Below are positions 1,571 to 32,764 of a stretch of DNA of 44,370 nucleotides, piece by piece. The position numbers and the translations under genes were made by a program. Every line of letters starts with the position of its first letter. Position 1 is the stretch's first letter. Below the pieces are notes generated by a model that had not been told where the DNA came from, ran no database searches, and saw nothing but the letters and a program-made list of their open reading frames with translations. Location of the stretch: IMG/VR virus record IMGVR_UViG_3300045988_005581; one strand, 5' to 3'. The DNA is from a virus (taxonomy: Duplodnaviria; Heunggongvirae; Uroviricota; Caudoviricetes).

Positions 1571-1730
1571 CATCAACGCAGCAATCGAAGAGGCAATCTG
1601 GCGCCGCTACAACGGAGAGCAGCAGCGGCACTTCTGCCTGGTGCAACGCGGCAACATGGTCGCCGTAGTGCAGGACCGCGATAACAAATATCCGAATGCG
1701 ATGTGGACGACGAGGAATTTCTTAAGATGA
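1536..1730 (+). CDS. hypothetical protein (start uncertain, non-ATG)
   Basis: ORF-track ORF; no ATG near the 5' end, candidate GTG at 1560; stop 1728-1730 overlaps ATG 1727 of the next ORF. Confidence 0.4.
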   Translation: MGLCGVETVFSDINAAIEEAIWRRYNGEQQRHFCLVQRGNMVAVVQDRDNKYPNAMWTTRNFLR

Positions 1731-1963
1731 TTACCAGCATTCCTAACCTTATTAAAGAATTTGGCACGATGGCGGAGACGTGCCGACAAACAGGCCTCAA
1801 CGAAATGACGATTGCGAAGTACAGCAAAGACGTGAAATGCGAGCGCCATGTAATTTATAATAACCGCCTTATGACGCACGTTAAGACAAGCCCGGTGTTA
1901 TTCACGCGCCGTGGTATCACTAAAACAGAGCAACGCATTGCGCGAGAGGAGAGCGGGGAATGA
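1727..1963 (+). CDS. hypothetical protein, possible HTH (78 aa)
   Basis: ATG 1727 in ATGA overlap with upstream stop; tool start 1703 is GTG. Segment TGLNEMTIAKYSKD is weakly HTH-like. Confidence 0.5.
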   Translation: MITSIPNLIKEFGTMAETCRQTGLNEMTIAKYSKDVKCERHVIYNNRLMTHVKTSPVLFTRRGITKTEQRIAREESGE

Positions 1964-2232
1964 TTGAATATGATAACTACCACATAAACCGGTGTGAGGC
2001 ACTTGAATTTTTGTCCAGAAACTTCCACGATTTCCCAGAACACATGCCTAATGTACGCGAAGTTGCGGAGGGTATTTCCGAGAACATATTCAAAGGCTGG
2101 CGATTCGTCGTTATTGATTCTGGTGAGTTGGTTTTCGCTGATTGCCTTTCACCATGTATTCGTAAAATAGACCTTGAGGAATTTAATGCAACTTTTAGTC
2201 TTTCCGAATGCCTGGGTTATAGCGGTAGCTAA
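1960..2232 (+). CDS. hypothetical protein (90 aa)
   Basis: ATG 1960 with GAGGAG RBS and ATGA overlap; followed by an intrinsic terminator. Confidence 0.55.
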   Translation: MIEYDNYHINRCEALEFLSRNFHDFPEHMPNVREVAEGISENIFKGWRFVVIDSGELVFADCLSPCIRKIDLEEFNATFSLSECLGYSGS

Positions 2233-2291
2233 CGACCATTACGGCGGCGACGGTAAACGAGCGCCACGCCACGGCCTATATAACTGATACA

Positions 2292-2314
2292 AGCCCTCTA
2301 CGGAGGGCTTTTCT
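2292..2314 (+). terminator. rho-independent terminator after the small-gene block
   Basis: Stem AGCCCTC (2292-2298) / GAGGGCT (2303-2309), 4-nt loop, then TTTTCT. Confidence 0.6.
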
Positions 2315-2343
2315 GTACATCCCGCCCAATCCCCTTATATAAT
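2314..2343 (+). promoter_or_regulatory. candidate promoter TGTACA-N18-TATAAT upstream of terminase genes
   Basis: Perfect TATAAT at 2338-2343; weak -35 (TGTACA 2314-2319). Followed by a perfect hairpin AGACGCG-TAGGG-CGCGTCT (2350-2368). Confidence 0.35.
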
Positions 2344-2408
2344 CCCTTTAGACGCGTAGGGCGCGTCTGGTGCGCTCTGATGGTCAGACGCATATGCAAG
2401 GGGATTCT

Positions 2409-2918
2409 ATGAAGCTGAAACTTAAGCAGCCATCGCCAGAGGTGGTACAAGCTGCACATGAAGAAGCTGTTAGCGCAAACCGTCGCCGTAAACGACCGCG
2501 CGGTAAACAGAGCCTTTATCAATCATCCCGTAATTCCGCCGCGTTGTGGGACCCGGGCTATTGCGATGCACTAATCGAGTTCTTCGACCGCACGTCGTGG
2601 GAGCTTGTGCCTACGTCTAAGGGTGACGAACGCCCGCTGATTCAGGATAAACCACCGTCACTGGCCCGCTTCGCCTTACACATCGGAGTCACTATCCCGA
2701 TTATTAAGCTTTGGCTGCGTGAGATTCCCGCATTTGCAGAAGCCTGGGAGACAGCACAGGCGCTGGAAGAGGCATACTTCACTGAAACGGGGGCCGCGGG
2801 CATCTCTGCTACGTTTGCTGCCGCGAAACTGGGCCTGAATAAAACAGTTGTCGCCGAAGAAGTACGCGACGAGCCAATCAGCGAAGTAACAATTAAGGTG
2901 GTGTCCGGTGAACGTTAA
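2409..2918 (+). CDS. terminase small subunit (putative)
   Basis: ATG 2409 with AAGGGG RBS (tool start 2370 lies upstream); basic N-terminal region; located immediately upstream of and overlapping the large terminase. Assignment by position and composition. Confidence 0.6.
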   Translation: MKLKLKQPSPEVVQAAHEEAVSANRRRKRPRGKQSLYQSSRNSAALWDPGYCDALIEFFDRTSWELVPTSKGDERPLIQDKPPSLARFALHIGVTIPIIKLWLREIPAFAEAWETAQALEEAYFTETGAAGISATFAAAKLGLNKTVVAEEVRDEPISEVTIKVVSGER

Positions 2919-4179
2919 TATCACGGCAACGGAGCCGCAAGGCGCGTTTCTCGGTATGCATTGCAAGTTTCCGGCATTCGTAGCTGGCTTCGGTACGGGT
3001 AAATCCGAAGTTATGTGCAACTCTGCACTACTCGACAGCATGGAAGGTGGTAGCGATTCTATCATCGCCATGTATGAGCCGACTTATGACCTGGTGCGCC
3101 TCATCCTTGCACCGCGTATGGAAGAAAAGCTCACCGACTGGGGTATCCGGTACAAATACAACAAGTCTGACAACATAATCTATACGTCTTCCGGACAATT
3201 TGGGGATTTTGTTCTGCGTACACTTGATAATCCAGCACGAATCGTTGGCTACGAATCGTTTCGTGCGAAAATCGACGAGTTGGACACCCTTAACATGGAG
3301 CACGCCGAGCACGCGTGGAACAAAGTCATCGCCCGTAACCGCCAGTTGCCGCGGACATATAAACCTATTACACCGAAACCTGCTAATACCGTTTCCGTGT
3401 TCACTACCCCGGAAGGATTCCGTTTCGTACATGACCGCTGGGTAGTCAAAAAGAATCCAGGCTACGAGATGATTCAGGCGTCCACCCTGTCTAACCCGTT
3501 CCTGCCAGAAGATTATGTGCAGTCGTTACGCGACACATACCCAGGTCAGTTGATTGACGCCTACATCAACGGCGAGTTCGTCAACCTGACGGCGGGGACT
3601 GTCTATTACGCCTATGACCGCAGGAAAAACAGCAGCCGCGAAACAATAAAACCAGGCGAGACTCTGTATATCGGGCAGGACTTTAACGTAGGCCACATGG
3701 CTAGTACAGTTTACGTGCAACGTGGCAAAGTCTGGCATGCAGTCGCCGAGTTGGTGGATATGTTCGATACGCCCGATGTGGTGAGAGCCGTAACAGAGCG
3801 CTGGAAAAGTAAGGGCCACTATATCGTTATGTACCCCGACGCAAGCGGTAAAAACCGTAAAAGTAACAACGCCAGCACATCTGATATCGCCCAGTTACAG
3901 CAGGCCGGCTTCGAAGTGCGCGCTAAATCGACAAACCCACCGGTTAAAGACCGCGTAGCGGCGATGAATAAGGCGCTTGAATCTGGTATGGTCATGATTA
4001 ATGAACAGGCTTGCCCTGTTACCGCACGATGCCTGGAGCAACAGGCTTACGACAAGAACGGCGAACCGGATAAATCAGGCGGTGTGGACCACCAGAATGA
4101 TGGAACCACATACCCTATCGCGTATGAAATGCCGATTCGCAAACCAGTTATTAACGTCCCGGTGACTTTCGCACTTTAA
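2908..4179 (+). CDS. terminase large subunit
   Basis: Walker A-like GFGTGKS near the N-terminus, 423 aa, followed by portal gene. Tool start is GTG 2908; alternative ATG at 2956. Confidence 0.85.
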   Translation: MNVNITATEPQGAFLGMHCKFPAFVAGFGTGKSEVMCNSALLDSMEGGSDSIIAMYEPTYDLVRLILAPRMEEKLTDWGIRYKYNKSDNIIYTSSGQFGDFVLRTLDNPARIVGYESFRAKIDELDTLNMEHAEHAWNKVIARNRQLPRTYKPITPKPANTVSVFTTPEGFRFVHDRWVVKKNPGYEMIQASTLSNPFLPEDYVQSLRDTYPGQLIDAYINGEFVNLTAGTVYYAYDRRKNSSRETIKPGETLYIGQDFNVGHMASTVYVQRGKVWHAVAELVDMFDTPDVVRAVTERWKSKGHYIVMYPDASGKNRKSNNASTSDIAQLQQAGFEVRAKSTNPPVKDRVAAMNKALESGMVMINEQACPVTARCLEQQAYDKNGEPDKSGGVDHQNDGTTYPIAYEMPIRKPVINVPVTFAL

Positions 4180-5683: not shown

Positions 5684-5704
5684 AGCCCCGAAAGGGGCTT
5701 TCTT
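5684..5704 (+). terminator. terminator-like hairpin between portal and head-morphogenesis genes
   Basis: AGCCCC-GAAA-GGGGCT then TTCTT; probably partial or stabilising. Confidence 0.4.
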
Positions 5705-5709
5705 ATAGT

Positions 5710-6786
5710 ATGCTATTAACTTTAGCGCCACAGGGTTTATCTATGAGCTTACTTACATCCCTAATCAGCCATCAGATATGGCTGCAACGCACCGCATCCG
5801 GTGAAGTGAAAGACCTCACGCCGTTCATTCAGGAGATAAGGGATGAAATCAAACGGCAGGTGCTGTTATTCGGTGACGACGGTCGCAGCACTGCGCGACT
5901 GAATAAACTGTTACGCGACCTGGAAGAAGCACTAACCGGTATTACGGGTGACTGGCAAACAAAGCTAACAGACGACCTTAAGGAACTGGCGGCGTACGAG
6001 GCTGAGTGGAACGTAAAGACACTGACCGCCAACGTAGACGCGGAATTTGTTACGCCTACCGCTGAGCAGGTATGGGCCGCTGCCGAGTTTCAACCATTAT
6101 CATTGAGCGACAAGCCCGTTGATTTCACCAAGCTGATGTCTGGATGGGGCGAAACGGAAGTAGCACGTCTTGTAACTGGAGTTAAGATGGGCTTTGTGCA
6201 AGGTCAAACCACACGGCAGATTGTTAAGAATGTTGTTGGCGCTGGTGGACTAGCCGACATCTCAGAACGTAACGCGACTACGGTAATCCGCACCGCGCTG
6301 TCCCACGTATCCAACGAGGCCCGTAACGAGACGTACCGCCAGAACGACGACATCATCGAGAAATATGAGTGGGTGTCAACTTTGGACAGCCGTACCAGCA
6401 CGATTTGCAGGGCCAGAGACGGAATGACGTGGGAAATCGGTAAAGGTCCGATGCCACCAGCCCATCCTAATTGCCGAAGTACCACTGCACCGGTAATCAG
6501 TTCAGAGTTCGACTTCCTTGATAAAGGCGCAAAACGTGCGGCTAAGGGTGCGTACGGCGGTACTCAGGTAAGCGCAGACACCACCTATTACGAGTTCCTG
6601 AAACAACAACCAGCATGGTTTCAGGACCAGGCGATCGGTCCTGTTCGTGGTAAGATTTTCCGTAACAGCGGTATATCGCCGGAAGAGTTTCGCGTAAAAT
6701 CTGTAGATGGTTTCGGGAATCCGCTTACGCTTAAGCAGATGGCGGAACTCGATAAACGTGTTGCTGATTATCTGAAAGGGGATTAA
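5710..6786 (+). CDS. head morphogenesis protein (Mu F / SPP1 gp7-like)
   Basis: Contains TLDSRTSTICRARDGMTWE, matching the conserved D-x-R-T...C...DG signature of Mu F-like minor head proteins as I recall it; sits after the portal gene. Start could be 5710 or 5740. Confidence 0.8.
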   Translation: MLLTLAPQGLSMSLLTSLISHQIWLQRTASGEVKDLTPFIQEIRDEIKRQVLLFGDDGRSTARLNKLLRDLEEALTGITGDWQTKLTDDLKELAAYEAEWNVKTLTANVDAEFVTPTAEQVWAAAEFQPLSLSDKPVDFTKLMSGWGETEVARLVTGVKMGFVQGQTTRQIVKNVVGAGGLADISERNATTVIRTALSHVSNEARNETYRQNDDIIEKYEWVSTLDSRTSTICRARDGMTWEIGKGPMPPAHPNCRSTTAPVISSEFDFLDKGAKRAAKGAYGGTQVSADTTYYEFLKQQPAWFQDQAIGPVRGKIFRNSGISPEEFRVKSVDGFGNPLTLKQMAELDKRVADYLKGD

Positions 6787-14596: not shown

Positions 14597-14620
14597 AGGC
14601 CCCTTTCGGGGCCTTTTTCT
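14597..14620. terminator. bidirectional intrinsic terminator
   Basis: AGGCCCC (14597-14603) / GGGGCCT (14608-14614), loop TTTC, T-runs on both strands; separates the tail-shaft operon from the convergent minus-strand cassette. Confidence 0.7.
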
Positions 14621-15174
14621 TACAAACCTAATTTTAAAGCAATGTCTATAACGTTCGATTTAACGTCACCCGGTATGATGTAGGTGTCGTAATCTTTTAC
14701 ACCACTAACATCGTACAGATAGCCACGGCTATCGCAGATGAACGTATAGCCGTCACGATGGAGGCGGACGATTCGCACGTCATGCCCCGCGGCGACGATA
14801 GGGGCAACTTCACTGGCGAATCCACCATCGGACACTACAAAAACTTCGTCGCCGTCAGGCAAGTTTTCAGCAAGATACTTACCGAAATAATCATCGCCGA
14901 ATACCGGTTTAATGAATTGCTCAGAAATGGCAATCATTAACCGGCGGCGGGACAACCCATTAAGAAAACCCTCGGGTTTTTCTTTCCGCGCCCGGTCGTC
15001 GTAGCCGTCGAGAAATTCGTGGTAAGCATCCTGGCCTAACGCTGCCAAAGCAATATTGAACATTGGATTCTTGAAACTGGTAGTTCCTTTCGCAAAGCCC
15101 ATTTCTACCAGCGCCATAGCAAGCGTGTCTTTCCCGCAACCCGCAGGGCCATTAAGAATAATTACCTTAGCCAT
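14620..15174 (-). CDS. deoxynucleoside monophosphate kinase-like P-loop kinase
   Basis: P-loop GPAGCGKDT near the N-terminus; the GKDT variant and overall spacing resemble T4 gp1-type dNMP kinases (recalled, not aligned). 184 aa. Confidence 0.65.
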   Translation of the reverse strand: MAKVIILNGPAGCGKDTLAMALVEMGFAKGTTSFKNPMFNIALAALGQDAYHEFLDGYDDRARKEKPEGFLNGLSRRRLMIAISEQFIKPVFGDDYFGKYLAENLPDGDEVFVVSDGGFASEVAPIVAAGHDVRIVRLHRDGYTFICDSRGYLYDVSGVKDYDTYIIPGDVKSNVIDIALKLGL

Positions 15175-15662
15175 TATTTATCGCTCCCGTGTGGTTTTAA
15201 GTGTGTAGAGTTCCCGTTACAGTCGTATTCGGTAACTGCGTGTGCGGTTATGCCGAGGTCACGGAAATGCTTTATTACCGCTGGAGAGTCGTCGAACGCA
15301 CACAAGATTCTTTCCAGTCCGAAAGCACGCAACACCTCTTCTTTAATTACGATGTCTTTTCTGTTGTCGTGTTTGCTGCGCATGATTAGCGTGTCAAACC
15401 TAACGTTATTCTCTCGTAACCATTCGCGAGTCTCCTCCTCAGCGTCATCACTTCGCCCGGTAAGGATAATTATAGTAAGTCCGGAATGCCACAGTACGCT
15501 ACACAAATGGATATTGTCGTATATCGGAGCGTCATCTTTGCAGGCCATGTTAAATGGCTTCCACGCCCACGTTTCTCCGTAGTTATCTTTTGGTAACAGG
15601 TGTAAGCGATGGGTACCGTCAGCCAATGTCCCGTCTAAATCGAAAATTACAATATCTTTCAT
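15174..15662 (-). CDS. HAD-superfamily phosphatase
   Basis: N-terminal DLDGTL (HAD motif I, DxDxT); 162 aa; TAATG-coupled to the kinase gene. Confidence 0.7.
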   Translation of the reverse strand: MKDIVIFDLDGTLADGTHRLHLLPKDNYGETWAWKPFNMACKDDAPIYDNIHLCSVLWHSGLTIIILTGRSDDAEEETREWLRENNVRFDTLIMRSKHDNRKDIVIKEEVLRAFGLERILCAFDDSPAVIKHFRDLGITAHAVTEYDCNGNSTHLKPHGSDK

Positions 15663-16789
15663 CCCAGCATCTCCGGTGAAATAGTTAAACGTGCGACCTC
15701 GCCATATTCGGCGCTATAAGTAATTACATTTGCACTGCGGCCCGACATCCATCCGCCGCGAGAGGCGTAGGCGTCTTTAGCCGCTAAGGTGCGGTGTTGC
15801 TCAACAATCATGTTACGGCTTTCTACAATCTTCTGGTGGTGCAGATGGCCTACGTGGGCGTAGCTGTAAACACTCTCGCCGAACGCTTTACGGAACTTGG
15901 CAATCATAACCGGTTCGATAGCGTCGAATCGTGCTTTATGCCCGTGATGGAAGAACAGCGTCGTTTTGCCGTGTTGCACCATCTTGTAAACATCCGGCGA
16001 CGTATCGACGAACACGCGCGGCTCATTGTCGTACAGCGTACTGAACATCTCAGCCAACCAAATCATACCCGATTCGTCGTGATTCCCTTGCACGATAAGC
16101 AAGCGAACATTTTTATGCTTAACCAACGCCATATCAACGACACGGCGGACCATACGAATCATGTAACGGACCAGTTTCTGATAGCGCGTGTCAGCGTCAA
16201 GGACATGACCGCTTGCGGGCGTAACGGCATCAAGACTATCGAAGTGCGCTAAGTCGCCAAGAAGATTGATAACCCCAGTACCGGCATCCGGTGCTTTCTG
16301 GAATGCTGCATCGAACCAACGAGAGAACAGGTCTTCCGCAATCTTCATGTCCCAGTCGTCGCCGCTCTCGTCGGCCCAGGCCAGCATACCGAGATGGAAA
16401 TCGGATACAGTGTAAAGATTGAGCAGCTTATCGTCCCGTTTGGCACGAACGGCTTTAACAGGTGCAACGGGCGTAATCTCCGATTTCATGCCTTCGATCA
16501 CGGCTTTCATCAATTCAACCTGACGTTCGGCGTCAGTGTCGGTCTTAACCCATTGCAACTTAGTGTTGCCGAACTCATCCACCAGTGACGACGTTCCTTT
16601 AATCTTATAGCCGTCCGGGACAAGGTGGCTAACATCACGTCCGTGACCTACACCTTTCTTAGCCAGCTTCGCTTTACGGATACGAATTACGCGGTCTGAG
16701 ATGCCGTATTTACGGGCGATGTCTACATTCTTCATTCCGGCGTTCAATTCTTCCTGTAACTGTTCGTCGGTTATTTTCTTCCGGGCCAT
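15659..16789 (-). CDS. calcineurin-like metallophosphoesterase with N-terminal HTH-like domain
   Basis: Motifs SDFH, GDLAHFD, GNHDE, HHGH and GHLHH match metallophosphoesterase signatures; N-terminal NVDIARKYGISDRVIR is HTH-like. RBS GAGGAAG. Confidence 0.75.
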   Translation of the reverse strand: MARKKITDEQLQEELNAGMKNVDIARKYGISDRVIRIRKAKLAKKGVGHGRDVSHLVPDGYKIKGTSSLVDEFGNTKLQWVKTDTDAERQVELMKAVIEGMKSEITPVAPVKAVRAKRDDKLLNLYTVSDFHLGMLAWADESGDDWDMKIAEDLFSRWFDAAFQKAPDAGTGVINLLGDLAHFDSLDAVTPASGHVLDADTRYQKLVRYMIRMVRRVVDMALVKHKNVRLLIVQGNHDESGMIWLAEMFSTLYDNEPRVFVDTSPDVYKMVQHGKTTLFFHHGHKARFDAIEPVMIAKFRKAFGESVYSYAHVGHLHHQKIVESRNMIVEQHRTLAAKDAYASRGGWMSGRSANVITYSAEYGEVARLTISPEMLG

Positions 16790-27185: not shown

Positions 27186-27323
27186 CTACTCTTCTGATAA
27201 CTTCTCCAGTACAAACGCCAGTTGCGCATTAGCGGCGTCTCTTTGCTGACGTAGCCGCAGAACCTCTTCTTCGAGTTCCTTGATACGTTTTTGCAATGCC
27301 GGAATTGGGGCTATGATGTTCAT
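27186..27323 (-). CDS. possible 45-aa coiled-coil peptide
   Basis: ATG at 27323 overlaps the stop of the upstream Toprim gene (ATGA); RBS-like GAGGAAA; predicted helical (KRIKELEEEVLRLRQQ). Speculative. Confidence 0.3.
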   Translation of the reverse strand: MNIIAPIPALQKRIKELEEEVLRLRQQRDAANAQLAFVLEKLSEE

Positions 27324-27835
27324 CTGGTAAATTTCCTCGCAAGATACGTTATTTCTTCTTCACAAAGTTCATCAAGGTCGTTAGATACAAATCCTCTGGT
27401 GAATGTTTTGCTGAACTTTAATCCAGCTTTATCATTGTCGCCAGCGCACACCCAGTCATACGGCAAAAGTGACATTTGCTGCCGTAGGTCTGTTGATATA
27501 TTTGACCCCAGTGCGCTTACAGCATTGAACCCGCAATTCATCAAGGCTACGGCTTTGAATATGCTTTCGGTAACAAATACCACCCCGCTTTCCGGCAAAT
27601 ACTCAAGCCCCCATAAACACGGCCTTGTTGTTCTGGTAAAGTACCGCGCGTCTTTAGGGTTTTTACAGTTCTTTTCGGCATGTGGTTTGTAATGCTGGTA
27701 TCCGCGAAGCCTACCGTCAAACCCCCACAGGTAAAACGTAGCTACTCCAGGGGCTAAGACTACCTGGAGACGGTCAGCGTCAAACCCACGCGCCAGCAGA
27801 TGAGCTTTAAGTAGAAACTCTTCGAAATCCATCAT
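27320..27835 (-). CDS. Toprim-like domain protein
   Basis: VFVTESIFKAV...DWVCAGDNDKAG carries a conserved Glu and a DxD motif in the spacing of Toprim domains; ATGA-coupled to the helicase gene. Confidence 0.5.
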   Translation of the reverse strand: MMDFEEFLLKAHLLARGFDADRLQVVLAPGVATFYLWGFDGRLRGYQHYKPHAEKNCKNPKDARYFTRTTRPCLWGLEYLPESGVVFVTESIFKAVALMNCGFNAVSALGSNISTDLRQQMSLLPYDWVCAGDNDKAGLKFSKTFTRGFVSNDLDELCEEEITYLARKFTR

Positions 27836-29256
27836 TTCTTACCTCGTCTCTTCATGTAATTAAGCAACTCTTCCTGTACCGATTTCTTCTCGTCGGTACG
27901 CGCGGCGACAACCTCGTCCAGAGTGTCTTTAGCAACGATGTGATAAAGGAACACCGGGCGCTCGTGACCCGCCTGTTTCTGGCGGACTGGGCCTATGCGC
28001 TCAACAACCTGCAAATAGTGCTCAAGGTTCCAGCCTTGCGAGATGAACGCCAGATGATGACCCCCGTCCTGTAAATTCAAACCATGCCCGGCTGACGCAG
28101 GATGCACGCATAAAATCTCGATTTCCCCACGGTTCCACGCTTCCATCTGCTTGTTCCCCCTAGCGCCTTTGGCGAACGCCTGTGCCTGTGGGAATCGCTT
28201 AAGGATACGCTCCAGTTCGTGTTTAAACTGATAGGCTACCAGCAACGGCGCACCCTGCAACTCCTCAACAATCGACTCGAGCGCATCCAGTTTCGTGTCG
28301 TGCACTTTCTCCCAGTCTTTGGTCGCTTCGCCATCCGGCCCTGACACATACACGGCACCAGATGCAATCTGCAAGCACTTTGAGGTCTTCGCCGCAGCGT
28401 TAGCCGCTTCAACTTCCCCGCTCTCCAGTTCTGCGAATAACTTCTCCTCCATATCTATGTACGCCTGACGCGCTTTCTTCGGCAGGTCTATTTCCACCGG
28501 TACGATAACAGGCGCTTCACAACCAAACCACTCGGCGGGGTCTATGGTCAGGCTGATGTCTTTCATCTTCTGATGAATCTCATTATCCGCACCCGGTCGT
28601 GCATGATACTCGCGGGCCATAGCCGATTTACCTTTCTGTACCGAGTTAAACCAGCGGTCGGTGAATGCTGTGTACGAAGAGCCGAGGCGCTCGCCAGCGT
28701 CGATAAACCAGTTCTGACCCCACAAGTCTTTGAGGCCGTTTGGCGACGGTGTGCCTGTCAGGTTGATGAAACGCTTAACCTTTCCGAACGCAACCTTGCT
28801 GAGCGCCTTTGCCCGCTTGCTACCACCCGAACGGCTGCGGAACGATTTAAGCTTCGTGCTTTCATCGGCAACGATAACCGTAAAAGGCCAGTCGTCTTTG
28901 CCGTAGTAGTCAATTAGCCACTCGATAACTTCGTAGTTAGTGCACACCACGTTAGCATCTGACTCCAGCGCTGCGATGCGGCGCTTCTCCGAACCAGTTG
29001 CATCTACGACACGCAGACAAGGGAATTGCCATTTCTCTTGTTCAGCGGGCCACGTACCGGACGCAACACGTAACGGGGCAAGGATTAACACGCGGTCCTC
29101 TTCCGTAAGCTGCCCGTTGCGGAACAGGCGGTTGAGCACCCACATAGTGGAGGAGGTTTTACCTCCCCCCATTCCGCACCAGATATTACAGCGCGGGTGT
29201 TGCAGCATGAACGAGGTCATGAGCTTCTGGTACTCGCGTCTTTGAAACTTAGACAT
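27832..29256 (-). CDS. SF2 (SNF2-like) helicase
   Basis: Motif I GMGGGKT, motif II VIVADEST, C-terminal helicase motifs (HPASAGHGLNLQ). ATG 29256 with GAGG RBS; tool start 29379 would overlap the upstream gene by 130 nt. Confidence 0.8.
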   Translation of the reverse strand: MSKFQRREYQKLMTSFMLQHPRCNIWCGMGGGKTSSTMWVLNRLFRNGQLTEEDRVLILAPLRVASGTWPAEQEKWQFPCLRVVDATGSEKRRIAALESDANVVCTNYEVIEWLIDYYGKDDWPFTVIVADESTKLKSFRSRSGGSKRAKALSKVAFGKVKRFINLTGTPSPNGLKDLWGQNWFIDAGERLGSSYTAFTDRWFNSVQKGKSAMAREYHARPGADNEIHQKMKDISLTIDPAEWFGCEAPVIVPVEIDLPKKARQAYIDMEEKLFAELESGEVEAANAAAKTSKCLQIASGAVYVSGPDGEATKDWEKVHDTKLDALESIVEELQGAPLLVAYQFKHELERILKRFPQAQAFAKGARGNKQMEAWNRGEIEILCVHPASAGHGLNLQDGGHHLAFISQGWNLEHYLQVVERIGPVRQKQAGHERPVFLYHIVAKDTLDEVVAARTDEKKSVQEELLNYMKRRGKK

Positions 29257-29932
29257 GATTAGCCTCGTAAACTGCTTTTGCGAAACCCCGAGGAGTAAGG
29301 CTGCGGATTGTTTTTGTCCGCACTGATTTACCGCCAAGTTTGTTGTGCTGGTCAGAATACCCATCACCCACGGCAACACCTGACTTAACCGGCATTACGA
29401 AACCATTACCCGTCCAAAGACATGTCTTTTTAGGGTACGCGTCTCGGGGTTTTATGTATTCAGGGAACATTGGATGCGTATCGTCTTCCGGTAGATAGCC
29501 GCCGTATTCGTAAGGATTGAACACATAATCGGGCTTACGCCACAAAGACGAGAGGACGCTAACTGGGTTCTCAATCATATAAGGTACGTTATACCTTTTA
29601 GCCAGGCGTGCCGCCACTTTGCATGTGATAACAGCCTCTACCTGAAACGTTGGGTTCTTCTTACGCTTCGTTTCGAAATGCGCCGCACCACTAACGGCTA
29701 AATCTGTGCAAGGAGGGAACGCAAAAATAATATCTGGCGAAACCTCGAAGTCGAACTTATTATCAATCCACGCGTTTATATAGTGGATGTTCTCGTGTTC
29801 AACTTTTGCGCCCAATCGCGCGTAGTCGCCGTGGTCGGCACCGTCGTAGTTGAAACAATAGCAAGTATGGCCCGCTTCTGCCCACGGTTGGGCCATAAGG
29901 CCCGAACCGTCAAACAATGACCAGACAATCAT
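29249..29932 (-). CDS. short DNA (cytosine-5)-methyltransferase-like protein
   Basis: LFDGSG (motif I-like FxGxG), FPPC...SG (motif IV-like PC), ENP (motif VI-like ENV); only 227 aa, so a full target-recognition domain is unlikely. Confidence 0.55.
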   Translation of the reverse strand: MIVWSLFDGSGLMAQPWAEAGHTCYCFNYDGADHGDYARLGAKVEHENIHYINAWIDNKFDFEVSPDIIFAFPPCTDLAVSGAAHFETKRKKNPTFQVEAVITCKVAARLAKRYNVPYMIENPVSVLSSLWRKPDYVFNPYEYGGYLPEDDTHPMFPEYIKPRDAYPKKTCLWTGNGFVMPVKSGVAVGDGYSDQHNKLGGKSVRTKTIRSLTPRGFAKAVYEANHV

Positions 29933-30063
29933 TTTGCCACCAGCACCAGCTCTTTACACCCGAACGCCGTATCAACGGCAACAGGGCGACGTGTCTTAAC
30001 GTTGAAAATCATGTCGCCAGGTACGATGTCACGTGCTGGTTTACGGTCATATTCGTGTTTCAT
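29929..30063 (-). CDS. hypothetical small protein (44 aa)
   Basis: ATG 30063 with AAGGA RBS just downstream of the minus-strand promoter; stop overlaps the methyltransferase-like start (ATGA). Not in the ORF track. Confidence 0.35.
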   Translation of the reverse strand: MKHEYDRKPARDIVPGDMIFNVKTRRPVAVDTAFGCKELVLVAK

Positions 30064-30093: not shown

Positions 30094-30381
30094 CTAACTA
30101 TAATAGTTTGCTATTAGGTCGTCAACCTGTTTAAACGAACCAACGACAAAAACATTTGCACCGCGTTTACGCATCCGCTCATGCTCACGTAACTGGTGCG
30201 GGTCTGGCTTCGTGTTTTCGTCTTTCTTAACCTCGACAAACCAGATGATACCGCCAGGGAGAATTACCAGCAGGTCGGGAGCGCCGGAACGTCCTTCGTA
30301 GGAGAGCTTGCGAACGAGGCCGCCGAGGGCCTCGAATCGCTCTTTTGCGTATTTCTGTATGCGCCCCTCAGGCGTACTCAT
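30094..30381 (-). CDS. VRR-NUC domain nuclease
   Basis: 95 aa with PDLLVILP...VEVKK, the PD-(D/E)xK-type signature typical of VRR-NUC proteins. Confidence 0.7.
   Translation of the reverse strand: MSTPEGRIQKYAKERFEALGGLVRKLSYEGRSGAPDLLVILPGGIIWFVEVKKDENTKPDPHQLREHERMRKRGANVFVVGSFKQVDDLIANYYS
30097..30125 (-). promoter_or_regulatory. sigma70-like promoter TTGACG-N17-TATAGT (minus strand) with embedded dyad
   Basis: On the minus strand: TTGACG = 30120-30125, TATAGT = 30097-30102; dyad AATAG-N4-CTATT 30102-30115. Confidence 0.5.
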
Positions 30382-30583: not shown

Positions 30584-32764
30584 TTACTTAGCATAGCGCT
30601 TCATCTCCGCACCTTCCGCCACAAGAGGGAACCCCTCCGCCCATTCCGGTAATTCACACATCAACCGCTCAAGCTCTGCAACATTGTATTCCGGTAAATC
30701 AGGTGTCTCGCAGATAATCTCATCGTGTACATGAAGCACAATAGGGTAGCCGTTTGCCTCTACGTTCAGCAGGGCGTTAGCCAGCAAATCACGGCACAGC
30801 GCCTGAGTGCAGTTTTCCACCAGTTTACCGGAGTAGGTGTACTGGAAGCCCCACTGCCTGGTTAACTGATTTTCACCCTGATACTTGATGCGCACGTTAG
30901 TAGAAACTTTTCCGTCTTCGTCTGTCTCTTTTGACACGCTCAACCCGACGCCCGGGTATGACATAACGCGACCTGACGGCAACGTCATGCGCAACCACCA
31001 ACCAGCGACTTTGTTGCCGTTGTTGTCTGTTTCTACGTTGCGAGAAAACTTAACCCCGCGAGGGCCAGCGGTGAACTCTTTCCCCGGATTACGGATTGCT
31101 GCCATAGCTGCGTCTTCAATATCACGCCAGAAAGCTACTGTTTCCGGGTGGGACTCCCGCCACATACGCTTAATTGCGTCGCATGTACGCCAGACTTTCT
31201 TATCAAGAATATATGATGGTCGGTCATCCTTTTCACCCGGACGCGGTGGTAGCTTGGCTTCCTGAATACGCGCCCACTCGTACCCGCGCGCGGTAGCGGC
31301 CCAGATGTGGTCAGGGAAAGTCCCATCCATTGTTTTTGCCATATCTACAAGGTCAAGGCCGAGGTTCTTGGCGAACTGAACGAAAGCACCGACACCGCCC
31401 GCGTATCCGAGGCCCAATTCGCAGGCTTTACCAATCTGGCGTAAGTCTTTACGTTCTTTCTTAATGTAATCCGGCTCCATGCCAAACATCTTACCTGCTG
31501 TTACGCAGTAAATATCCAGTCCGGCGCGGAACGTATCTAGCGCGGTTTCTTCGCCTGCCAGCCACGCAAGCCCGCGACCCTCAACGTTAGAGTAATCGGC
31601 GACGACAAACTTATGCCCAGCTTCCGGTATAATGCAGCTACGAACGGTAGATGCCGTCAGCTTGGCTACGTCAAATCGGCGGTGCGCCCGGCCCTTAAGT
31701 AACGCTGAAATGCCTTTATCCAGTTCATCATCGTGATAGTACCCACGCGCCAGGTTCTGTGGCTGGAAGCCTTTACCCGCGAACCGTAACGTACGCTTTG
31801 CCCCACCGTACTGGATACAACCGCGGCGTCGGTCGTCCGACGAGCGGCCTAACAGCAGCGGGTTATATTTCGTGGACGCTGTTGACGCGGCCCCGAGGCG
31901 CATTTCGATAATCATCCGGGCGTCGTCCGGTAAATCATCATCTGCCAACAGGTCGTTAAGCGTCGACTTCTGTGCATTGTGTATGCGGTGCGCGGGCGCA
32001 AGTTCACGCAGAATCGGAAGGAAGTCTTTACCGGTAAGCGAGCCGCCGTATTTACGTTGAGCTTCTTCCTGTAACTGTGCCTTGTGCTTCTCTACGGCTT
32101 CAATCGCGGCTTCCGCCAGTGCGACGTCAACCTTAAATCCGCGGTCGTTGATTAACTGGTCAAGTTCCAGTACACGGTCTTCGAACTCGGAGTTACCCCA
32201 ACGCGGCAGCTTATGGAAGACTTCACGCATCGCAGTGATGTCGCTCACGGCGTACCTGATGAACATCGCCCACTCGTCAGGGTGAGTTTCTGCGGTGTAG
32301 CGGCGGATTTTGTAGTTCTTCGGCGTCGGTTTAGAGAAACGCTTAATCAGAGCCTTGCCGCGTTTATCTTTCGCGTTGTCTGCAGACACGCCCAGCACTT
32401 CGCACAGCGCATCAAGAGAACCCGGCAGCGCGTGACGGAACGCCCAAATCATAGTATCAATGGTGTTACTTACCGGAATATCAAAGTCCCAGCAGTGTTT
32501 CATGATTAGGCGATCGAAAAGTCCACCGTTGTGCCACACCATCTTGATGCGGCTGTTGGGCTTAACAAGGCGGCGCAGTGCGCGGTGTAAATCCCCCGGC
32601 ATGTCGCTGCCGTCGGTGCAATCCCATACCCGCACAGGTTCGTCGTCAAAAGCATATGTACAGATAAGCACTTCGGTTGACGGGTGTTCGGCGTAAGCGT
32701 AAGAACCGACTTTCTTCAAATCGGCTTCTGAGAATGTTTCAAAGTCTAAGAACAGGTAACTCAT
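30584..32764 (-). CDS. DNA polymerase, family A, with 3'-5' exonuclease domain
   Basis: Exo I-like LFLDFETFS; Pol motif A ADYSNVEGR; motif B-like KACELGLGYAGG; motif C HVHDEI. 726 aa. Confidence 0.9.
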   Translation of the reverse strand: MSYLFLDFETFSEADLKKVGSYAYAEHPSTEVLICTYAFDDEPVRVWDCTDGSDMPGDLHRALRRLVKPNSRIKMVWHNGGLFDRLIMKHCWDFDIPVSNTIDTMIWAFRHALPGSLDALCEVLGVSADNAKDKRGKALIKRFSKPTPKNYKIRRYTAETHPDEWAMFIRYAVSDITAMREVFHKLPRWGNSEFEDRVLELDQLINDRGFKVDVALAEAAIEAVEKHKAQLQEEAQRKYGGSLTGKDFLPILRELAPAHRIHNAQKSTLNDLLADDDLPDDARMIIEMRLGAASTASTKYNPLLLGRSSDDRRRGCIQYGGAKRTLRFAGKGFQPQNLARGYYHDDELDKGISALLKGRAHRRFDVAKLTASTVRSCIIPEAGHKFVVADYSNVEGRGLAWLAGEETALDTFRAGLDIYCVTAGKMFGMEPDYIKKERKDLRQIGKACELGLGYAGGVGAFVQFAKNLGLDLVDMAKTMDGTFPDHIWAATARGYEWARIQEAKLPPRPGEKDDRPSYILDKKVWRTCDAIKRMWRESHPETVAFWRDIEDAAMAAIRNPGKEFTAGPRGVKFSRNVETDNNGNKVAGWWLRMTLPSGRVMSYPGVGLSVSKETDEDGKVSTNVRIKYQGENQLTRQWGFQYTYSGKLVENCTQALCRDLLANALLNVEANGYPIVLHVHDEIICETPDLPEYNVAELERLMCELPEWAEGFPLVAEGAEMKRYAK

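Follow-up and report, generated by a model that had tools for sequence, protein, structure and literature searches.

We report here that a 227-residue protein encoded on the minus strand of the viral record IMGVR_UViG_3300045988_005581 (Caudoviricetes; the 44,370-nucleotide stretch of DNA analyzed here over its whole length, hereafter the window) is likely to be an active, S-adenosylmethionine (SAM)-dependent DNA cytosine-5 methyltransferase (C5-MTase) of a compact phage type. This prediction draws on the fold, motif conservation and orthology shown here, and on the formation of 5-methylcytosine (5mC), which has been shown in the literature for a relative only. The gene itself is not new, being widely annotated, and a close member of its family has been characterized; the exchange of a short cassette at the position of the target-recognition domain is an observation that goes beyond the existing annotation. 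An earlier note on this stretch, made from the sequence, had described the protein as an unusually short, C5-MTase-like member of the replication module, and had proposed that it could be a minimal anti-restriction methylase, an enzyme acting on RNA or nucleotides, or an inactive DNA-binding paralogue. The C5-MTase-like assignment is upheld by fold, motifs and family, as described below.

Predicted fold and family membership

An AlphaFold2 model of the protein, built on an alignment of 36 sequences, is confident (predicted local distance difference test, pLDDT, of 89.8; predicted template modeling score, pTM, of 0.89), and its sole weak stretch spans residues 191-200 (pLDDT of about 60). Foldseek searches initiated using this model retrieve DNMT3A/B with an E-value of about 3e-7, and the top matches in a library of viral structures are phage proteins of similarly small size that carry a cytosine-methylase annotation. 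As modeled, the protein has the catalytic-domain fold of C5-MTases. Its closest structural analogues appear to be DNMT3A/B, which share 13-17% sequence identity with it, a likeness that does not amount to family membership; by analogy, they likewise read DNA through very small recognition loops. DNMT3 enzymes form tetramers, target CpG and carry regulatory domains, whereas the window protein is without regulatory domains. The compact domain also forms the N-terminal part of very long phage proteins annotated as helicases.

The protein matches PHROG 757 ('DNA methyltransferase') with an E-value of 1.7e-87 over residues 1-226. An NCBIfam scan of the protein returned no match. More than 7,797 proteins of a metagenome collection match it (best E-value 2e-153), as do 2,683 clusters at 50% identity, by their representatives, with an E-value of at most 1e-3 and 302 with an E-value of at most 1e-30. 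A homologue is present in 1,526 phage records, whose names include Escherichia, Klebsiella, Salmonella, Vibrio, Arthrobacter and Rhizobium, and the gene is a standard component of the Guernseyvirinae, Drexlerviridae, Vequintavirinae, Webervirus and many other phages. Family members have a median length of 234 residues (best 150 representatives of the 50%-identity clusters); short length is thus the family norm and the window protein is not a truncation. The description 'unusually short' therefore holds against the canonical C5-MTases M.HhaI (327 residues), M.HaeIII (328 residues) and Escherichia coli Dcm (472 residues), compared to which the window protein is about 100-250 residues shorter, and does not hold within its own family.

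Natural variants of the family provide further evidence. A 563-residue member (P0291) is a natural fusion of the compact C5-MTase domain with a Dam-type D12 N6-adenine DNA methylase (PF02086, E-value 2.5e-48), and a 348-residue member (P0373) is a natural fusion with an HNH endonuclease domain. A third, of 548 residues (P0376), carries an intein (Hint and LAGLIDADG) directly before the catalytic Cys (FGFPP/CFTGDTL...IVHN/CTNLSVSG). Inteins are typically inserted at functionally essential sites. The Dam-type fusion, the HNH domain and the intein at the Cys argue for an active, DNA-directed enzyme. In Arthrobacter phage Daob, a 216-residue member of the compact family lies directly downstream of, and overlaps, the gene of a 470-residue 'DNA methylase', and a deoxycytidylate deaminase gene is located 2 kb beyond the compact member (coordinates of this arrangement, 1577-3636 and 5693-6070).

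Conserved motifs

The coding sequence and its motifs are located as follows.

29249..29932, minus strand: coding sequence of the predicted compact DNA cytosine-5 methyltransferase, ATG start, 227 residues
29900..29914, minus strand: motif I, F7-D-G-S-G11, SAM-binding FxGxG loop after strand β1
29708..29719, minus strand: motif IV, F72-P-P-C75, with the catalytic cysteine C75
29564..29572, minus strand: motif VI, E121-N-P123, ENV-type, whose Glu contacts the flipped cytosine
29423..29431, minus strand: K168-K169-T170, at the start of strand 170-175 (a strand in the AlphaFold2 model), position of motif VIII
29270..29305, minus strand: C-terminal motif R210-S-L-T-P-R-G-F-A-K-A-V221 with the last helix, putative equivalent of motif IX or X

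The three signatures on which the C5-MTase assignment was first made are present, viz., LFDGSG at residues 6-11, FPPC at residues 72-75 and ENP at residues 121-123. Conservation was counted over an alignment of 138 family representatives. The motif I loop aligns to motif I of M.HaeIII, DNMT2 and CmoX, and its G11 is kept in 106 of the 138. The catalytic C75 is kept in 137/138 and F72 in 92% of the family, while P74-C75 falls on the PC motif in alignments with E. coli Dcm and CmoX. In motif VI, which a global hhalign alignment places on the AENV of CmoX, E121 is invariant (138/138), as is G82 (138/138), and N122 and P123 are kept in 133 and 137 representatives, respectively. Conservation extends to Y166 and W173 (133/138 each), to K168 (132/138) and T170 (131/138) at the motif VIII position, and to R210 (125/138), P214 (130/138) and G216 (130/138) in the C-terminal motif. 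A weak hhalign alignment puts the C-terminal motif on motif IX of the CmoX family (E-value 0.05), and its position on the final helix would fit motif X. The target-recognition domain between motifs VIII and IX is missing: about 34 residues (176-209) lie between the strand 170-175 and the C-terminal RSLTP, compared to roughly 80 or more in canonical enzymes, which bears out the earlier statement that the protein is too short for a conventional domain of this kind.

Relatives with experimental support

The trigger of retron Ec86 has been reported in a preprint to be the 711-bp 'dcm' gene of phage K42, a phage 95% identical to the BASEL phage KarlJaspers, and all four K42 phages that escaped Ec86 carried lesions in or just upstream of dcm (10.1101/2023.08.16.553469). 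Expression of K42 Dcm raises 5mC on multicopy single-stranded DNA (msDNA) in vivo, as determined by liquid chromatography-mass spectrometry against a 5mC standard, and no such rise is seen with a C82A/E128A/K175A/K176A mutant (10.1101/2023.08.16.553469). A peer-reviewed version of this preprint is cited by a later paper. KarlJaspers (Bas06) carries a 711-bp 'Dcm-like C5 cytosine methyltransferase' gene matching K42 dcm, and its product is 57% identical to the window protein over the full length (232 columns; 227 versus 236 residues). K42 residues C82, E128, K175 and K176 align exactly with C75, E121, K168 and K169 of the window protein. The K42/KarlJaspers Dcm is therefore a full-length orthologue from the same PHROG, located in the early/replication region of a lytic coliphage. 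The two differ in a short cassette discussed below ('DNPGWAK' in K42/KarlJaspers versus 'GYSDQHNK' in the window) and in their phages, KarlJaspers belonging to the Drexlerviridae and the window phage to the Guernseyvirinae. KarlJaspers also encodes a Dam-like methylase, whereas the 20 window open reading frames (ORFs) scanned with Pfam and the annotation of the fetched region of the related phage JSSK01 yielded no second methyltransferase.

The second such relative is gp52 of Pantoea phage AAS23, which is 54% identical to the window protein. Its authors reported a match of gp52 to a solved C5-MTase at an HHpred probability of 99.7% and, from restriction digests in which the phage DNA showed Dcm-type protection, concluded that it is Dcm-methylated. 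For Kagunavirus or Guernseyvirinae themselves, literature searches for work on the methylome or restriction turned up annotation-level mentions only.

These data bear on the substrate of the enzyme. One alternative is an RNA methyltransferase of the Dnmt2-like, tRNA m5C-forming kind, or a methyltransferase of free nucleotides; we consider such an activity highly improbable. DNA enzymes score higher, the K42 orthologue methylates DNA in vivo, the genomic context is that of DNA replication, and the natural fusion to a Dam-type DNA methylase points to a DNA substrate. No evidence for the RNA or nucleotide enzyme proposed earlier was found in this analysis.

A different cofactor is a further alternative. 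SpCmoX of Synechococcus phage S-B43 is a DNA C5-carboxymethyltransferase that depends on carboxy-SAM, and it is a good structural match to the window protein; a CmoX-like enzyme supplied with carboxy-SAM by the CmoA of the host would form 5-carboxymethylcytosine instead of or besides 5mC. We regard this as very unlikely for the window protein. SpCmoX, at 372 residues, has a complete recognition domain as well as motif IX and motif X, and is encoded beside CmoA and an amide ligase; neither of these two, nor a second methyltransferase, was found within the same set of window ORFs and JSSK01 annotations. The defining features of CmoX are SPPC and an Arg (R350) replacing the Asn of motif X, and the window protein has FPPC at the former. 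Profile alignments with CmoX and with the CmoX family cover the N-terminal half through motif VI only, and RSLTP is weakly placed on motif IX and not X, so R210, though conserved, is at most a candidate counterpart of R350 of CmoX. DNMT3A/B, which use SAM, likewise carry Arg at the position of motif X. Finally, what the K42 orthologue raises is 5mC, measured against a 5mC standard.

A swappable cassette at the recognition position

The position of the target-recognition domain is occupied by a short variable cassette.

29342..29464, minus strand: variable cassette, residues 157-197, 'GYSDQHNK' form, at the position of the target-recognition domain

This cassette includes the part of the model with the lowest confidence noted above. 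Among the close relatives, defined as the 34 proteins at least 90% identical in residues 1-150, it occurs in two forms, 'DNPGWAK' in 31 and the 'GYSDQHNK' of the window in three. Over residues 157-204, the identity of the window protein is about 58% with these close relatives and averages 71% (up to 81%) with distant members that have the same form. The same break is seen in the nucleotide sequence. Compared to Salmonella Jerseyvirus UPWr_S5, nucleotide identity is 93-100% over codons 1-150 and 87-93% over codons 196-225, and falls to 73%, 71% and 44% in the three 15-codon intervals of codons 151-195. The differences between the two proteins are almost confined to residues 158-197. As judged from these sequences, the two discrete forms of the cassette are the outcome of a recombinational swap. 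The Dcm-like proteins of KarlJaspers, JohannLBurckhardt and AAS23 have the '(D/S)NPGW' form, unlike the window protein with its 'GYSDQHNK'.

We tentatively suggest, while holding it rather doubtful, that the cassette of residues 157-197 might be a miniature, horizontally exchangeable target-recognition module, with its 'GYSxQH' and 'DNPGWA' forms giving different methylation motifs. If so, this Kagunavirus would have a methylation target different from the assumed CCWGG, and the family would represent a natural minimal scaffold in which the specificity of a C5-MTase is swapped by recombining about 120 bp. The C5-MTases of the Bacillus phages SPR, phi3T and rho11s are multispecific enzymes of about 440-500 residues with several large recognition modules in tandem. 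Their exchangeable specificity modules on a constant catalytic scaffold may be regarded as analogous to the swap of the 157-197 cassette, though the window protein has a single cassette of about 40 residues, whose role in specificity is presumed, in place of tandem modules.

Observations that weigh against the assignment

Several observations weigh against reading the window protein as an active C5-MTase that behaves as its studied relatives do, and they arise at three levels. In sequence searches, its sole Pfam match is to PF00145, at 17.1 bits compared to a gathering threshold of 22 and over residues 3-100 only, and 3 of 98 family representatives only reach an E-value of 0.01 for PF00145. 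A search of PDB sequences using the single window protein did not find any significant relative, and HMMER searches of the PDB with profiles of 36 and 98 family sequences gave best E-values of 0.62 and 0.3 (M.HaeIII, DNMT2), none significant. It is the fold, the motifs, the PHROG match and the published HHpred result that carry the link to C5-MTases, and not HMMER. In the motifs, motif VIII is non-canonical, reading P167-K-K-T-C-L-W with no RxR in place of QxRxR; instead of the expected motifs IX (RxLTxxE) and X (GNxVP) there is a single C-terminal motif, RSLTPRGFAKAV; and the end of strand β2, which is D in 132/138 representatives, is N28 in the window protein. Among the relatives, all members with experimental support (K42/KarlJaspers and AAS23) carry the other form of the cassette, and in the BASEL study the methyltransferase genes of Drexlerviridae showed no simple relation to resistance or sensitivity to restriction. 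Further, the CCWGG specificity of K42 Dcm was carried over from E. coli Dcm and not measured, and K42 dcm is dispensable in the laboratory, where escapers lose the gene without penalty (10.1101/2023.08.16.553469).

Three of these features, namely N28 in place of the usual acidic ligand of the SAM ribose, the non-canonical motif VIII and the sub-threshold Pfam score, are what one might expect of a catalytically dead paralogue retained for DNA binding, as proposed in the earlier note. We find this scarcely credible. C75, E121, N122, P123 and G82 are each kept in 133-138 of the 138 representatives, an intein is inserted exactly at the catalytic Cys in one family member, and the active K42 orthologue also has N28 and the KKT strand. 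In the enterobacterial-phage clade, the K42 orthologue included, N28 is followed by an inserted 'YDGADHG' (residues 28-34, 29833-29851). H34 of this insertion is invariant in the 36-sequence alignment, which comprises the close relatives and an actinophage clade, and the insertion holding it is absent from 132 of the 138 broad representatives. An active C5-MTase remains, on the whole of these observations, the reading that we prefer.

Target sequence

The assumption that K42 Dcm recognizes CCWGG finds support in the observation that mutating CCTGG in the msDNA abolished defense (10.1101/2023.08.16.553469). The family profile and E. coli K-12 Dcm align in hhalign over 22 columns around motif IV only, with an E-value of 0.17 and a probability of 0.4%. 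Going by these comparisons, 'Dcm-like' is a name and not a statement of orthology, and CCWGG is a guess from that name. The name 'Dcm' and the CCWGG specificity of the family as a whole rest on assumption, and the enzymes that have been tested represent one of the two recombining forms of the cassette. Since the cassette of the window protein differs from the K42-type form, the CCWGG specificity is not transferable to it. The counts of this motif in the window are uninformative on specificity: CCWGG occurs 71 times compared to 63.5 ± 8.9 in dinucleotide shuffles and is not avoided, and a higher-order Markov estimate puts the expectation at 113.

Proposed mode of action and biological role

We propose that the methyltransferase is transcribed together with the replication genes, probably with translational coupling to its neighbors as their overlaps suggest, and that it would methylate newly made phage DNA during infection. 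By the general mechanism of C5-MTases, SAM would be held by the F7-x-G-x-G11 loop and the target cytosine would be flipped out of the helix for attack of C75 on its C6, with E121 contacting and activating the cytosine ring; the conserved K168, T170 and R210 presumably help position the substrate. The methyl group would then be transferred to C5 and the enzyme released by elimination. Recognition of the sequence would come from the catalytic loop (residues 76-95) together with the cassette of residues 157-197.

The likely benefit is that the phage DNA is shielded from host restriction sensitive to the state of its cytosines. This purpose, the least certain step of the proposal, is no more than plausible. 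Of the three readings put forward earlier, the minimal DNA methylase is the one that is favored, given the 5mC raised by the 57%-identical orthologue and not by its active-site mutant. Enzymes of this type carry a known cost, in that retron Ec86 (Eco1) can sense them. An active DNA C5-MTase could also serve mainly in a role other than protection from restriction. It might tune phage gene expression, packaging or replication, mark the DNA of the host or act against another defense. The absence of a simple link with restriction in BASEL and the loss of the gene from K42 escapers without a laboratory penalty are in keeping with such a role, as are the tight embedding of the gene in a replication operon, where start and stop codons overlap, and the occurrence of the compact domain at the N-terminus of very long helicase-annotated proteins. 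However, protective methylation is the established role of orphan phage methylases, as is generally known and as cited in the AAS23 paper, the DNA of AAS23 is protected from Dcm-sensitive enzymes, and direct evidence for another role was not found; we therefore consider a main role of this kind unlikely, and retain protection from restriction as the likely benefit.

In practical terms, the phage DNA probably carries 5mC within some short motif. This would affect restriction mapping, cloning and nanopore base-calling, as well as the range of hosts among strains whose restriction is methyl-dependent or methyl-sensitive, and the phage may, by analogy with K42, be visible to retron Ec86.

Genomic context

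The window corresponds approximately to the whole genome of a Kagunavirus (Guernseyvirinae). Around the methyltransferase gene, a 6-kb stretch shares 98% identity with Escherichia phage vB_EcoS-22664BS2 and 92% with phage JSSK01, and the same gene is labeled 'DNA cytosine methyltransferase' in several related genomes. Its neighbors are as follows.

30584-32764, minus strand: DNA polymerase A, replication gene string
30094-30381, minus strand: VRR-NUC, replication gene string
29929..30063, minus strand: 44-residue ORF upstream of the methyltransferase, its stop overlapping the methyltransferase start (ATGA)
27832..29256, minus strand: SNF2-family helicase downstream of the methyltransferase (Pfam SNF2-rel_dom, E-value 6.7e-13)
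27320-27835, minus strand: Toprim primase, replication gene string

The gene thus lies, as the earlier note had stated, in the replication module, in one minus-strand string with DNA polymerase A, VRR-NUC, the SNF2 helicase and the Toprim primase. The 44-residue ORF matches PHROG 4879, of unknown function (E-value 3.4e-24), and a counterpart is annotated in JSSK01. On the other side, the ATG of the helicase at 29256 overlaps the methyltransferase stop by 8 nucleotides, an overlap annotated identically in JSSK01. These overlapping start and stop codons suggest co-expression of the methyltransferase with the replication proteins. An alternative helicase start at GTG 29379, given by a mechanical ORF call (515 residues, overlapping the methyltransferase by 131 nucleotides), was rejected, as the relatives annotate the ATG at 29256 (474 residues).

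GATC is strongly avoided in the window, with 8 sites observed compared to 140.6 ± 10.9 expected from dinucleotide-preserving shuffles, while other 4-bp palindromes are near expectation.

6633, 8080, 16496, 20826, 22560, 32512, 39077 and 41699: GATC sites of the whole window

Enterobacterial phages are known to avoid GATC, and the degree of avoidance in the window is striking. A Dam-type methylase was not found in the window.

The earlier note had also pointed to a dNMP-kinase-like gene as a clue to the modification state of the phage DNA. This gene belongs to the following group.

14620-15174, minus strand: P-loop kinase, 'dNMP-kinase-like' (PHROG 139 'dNMP kinase', E-value 3e-44)
15174-15662, minus strand: PNKP-type HAD phosphatase (Pfam HAD_PNKP, E-value 3.3e-20)
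15659-16789, minus strand: Mre11-like metallophosphoesterase (PHROG 704 'DNA repair exonuclease')

The kinase gene adjoins the PNKP-type phosphatase and the Mre11-like phosphoesterase and not genes of base modification, so it adds nothing to the case for an unusual DNA chemistry, and we set it aside as a sign of modified nucleotides. Its neighbors suggest instead an end-healing or repair set, in which the phosphatase and the P-loop kinase, as a pair, look like a split polynucleotide kinase/phosphatase.

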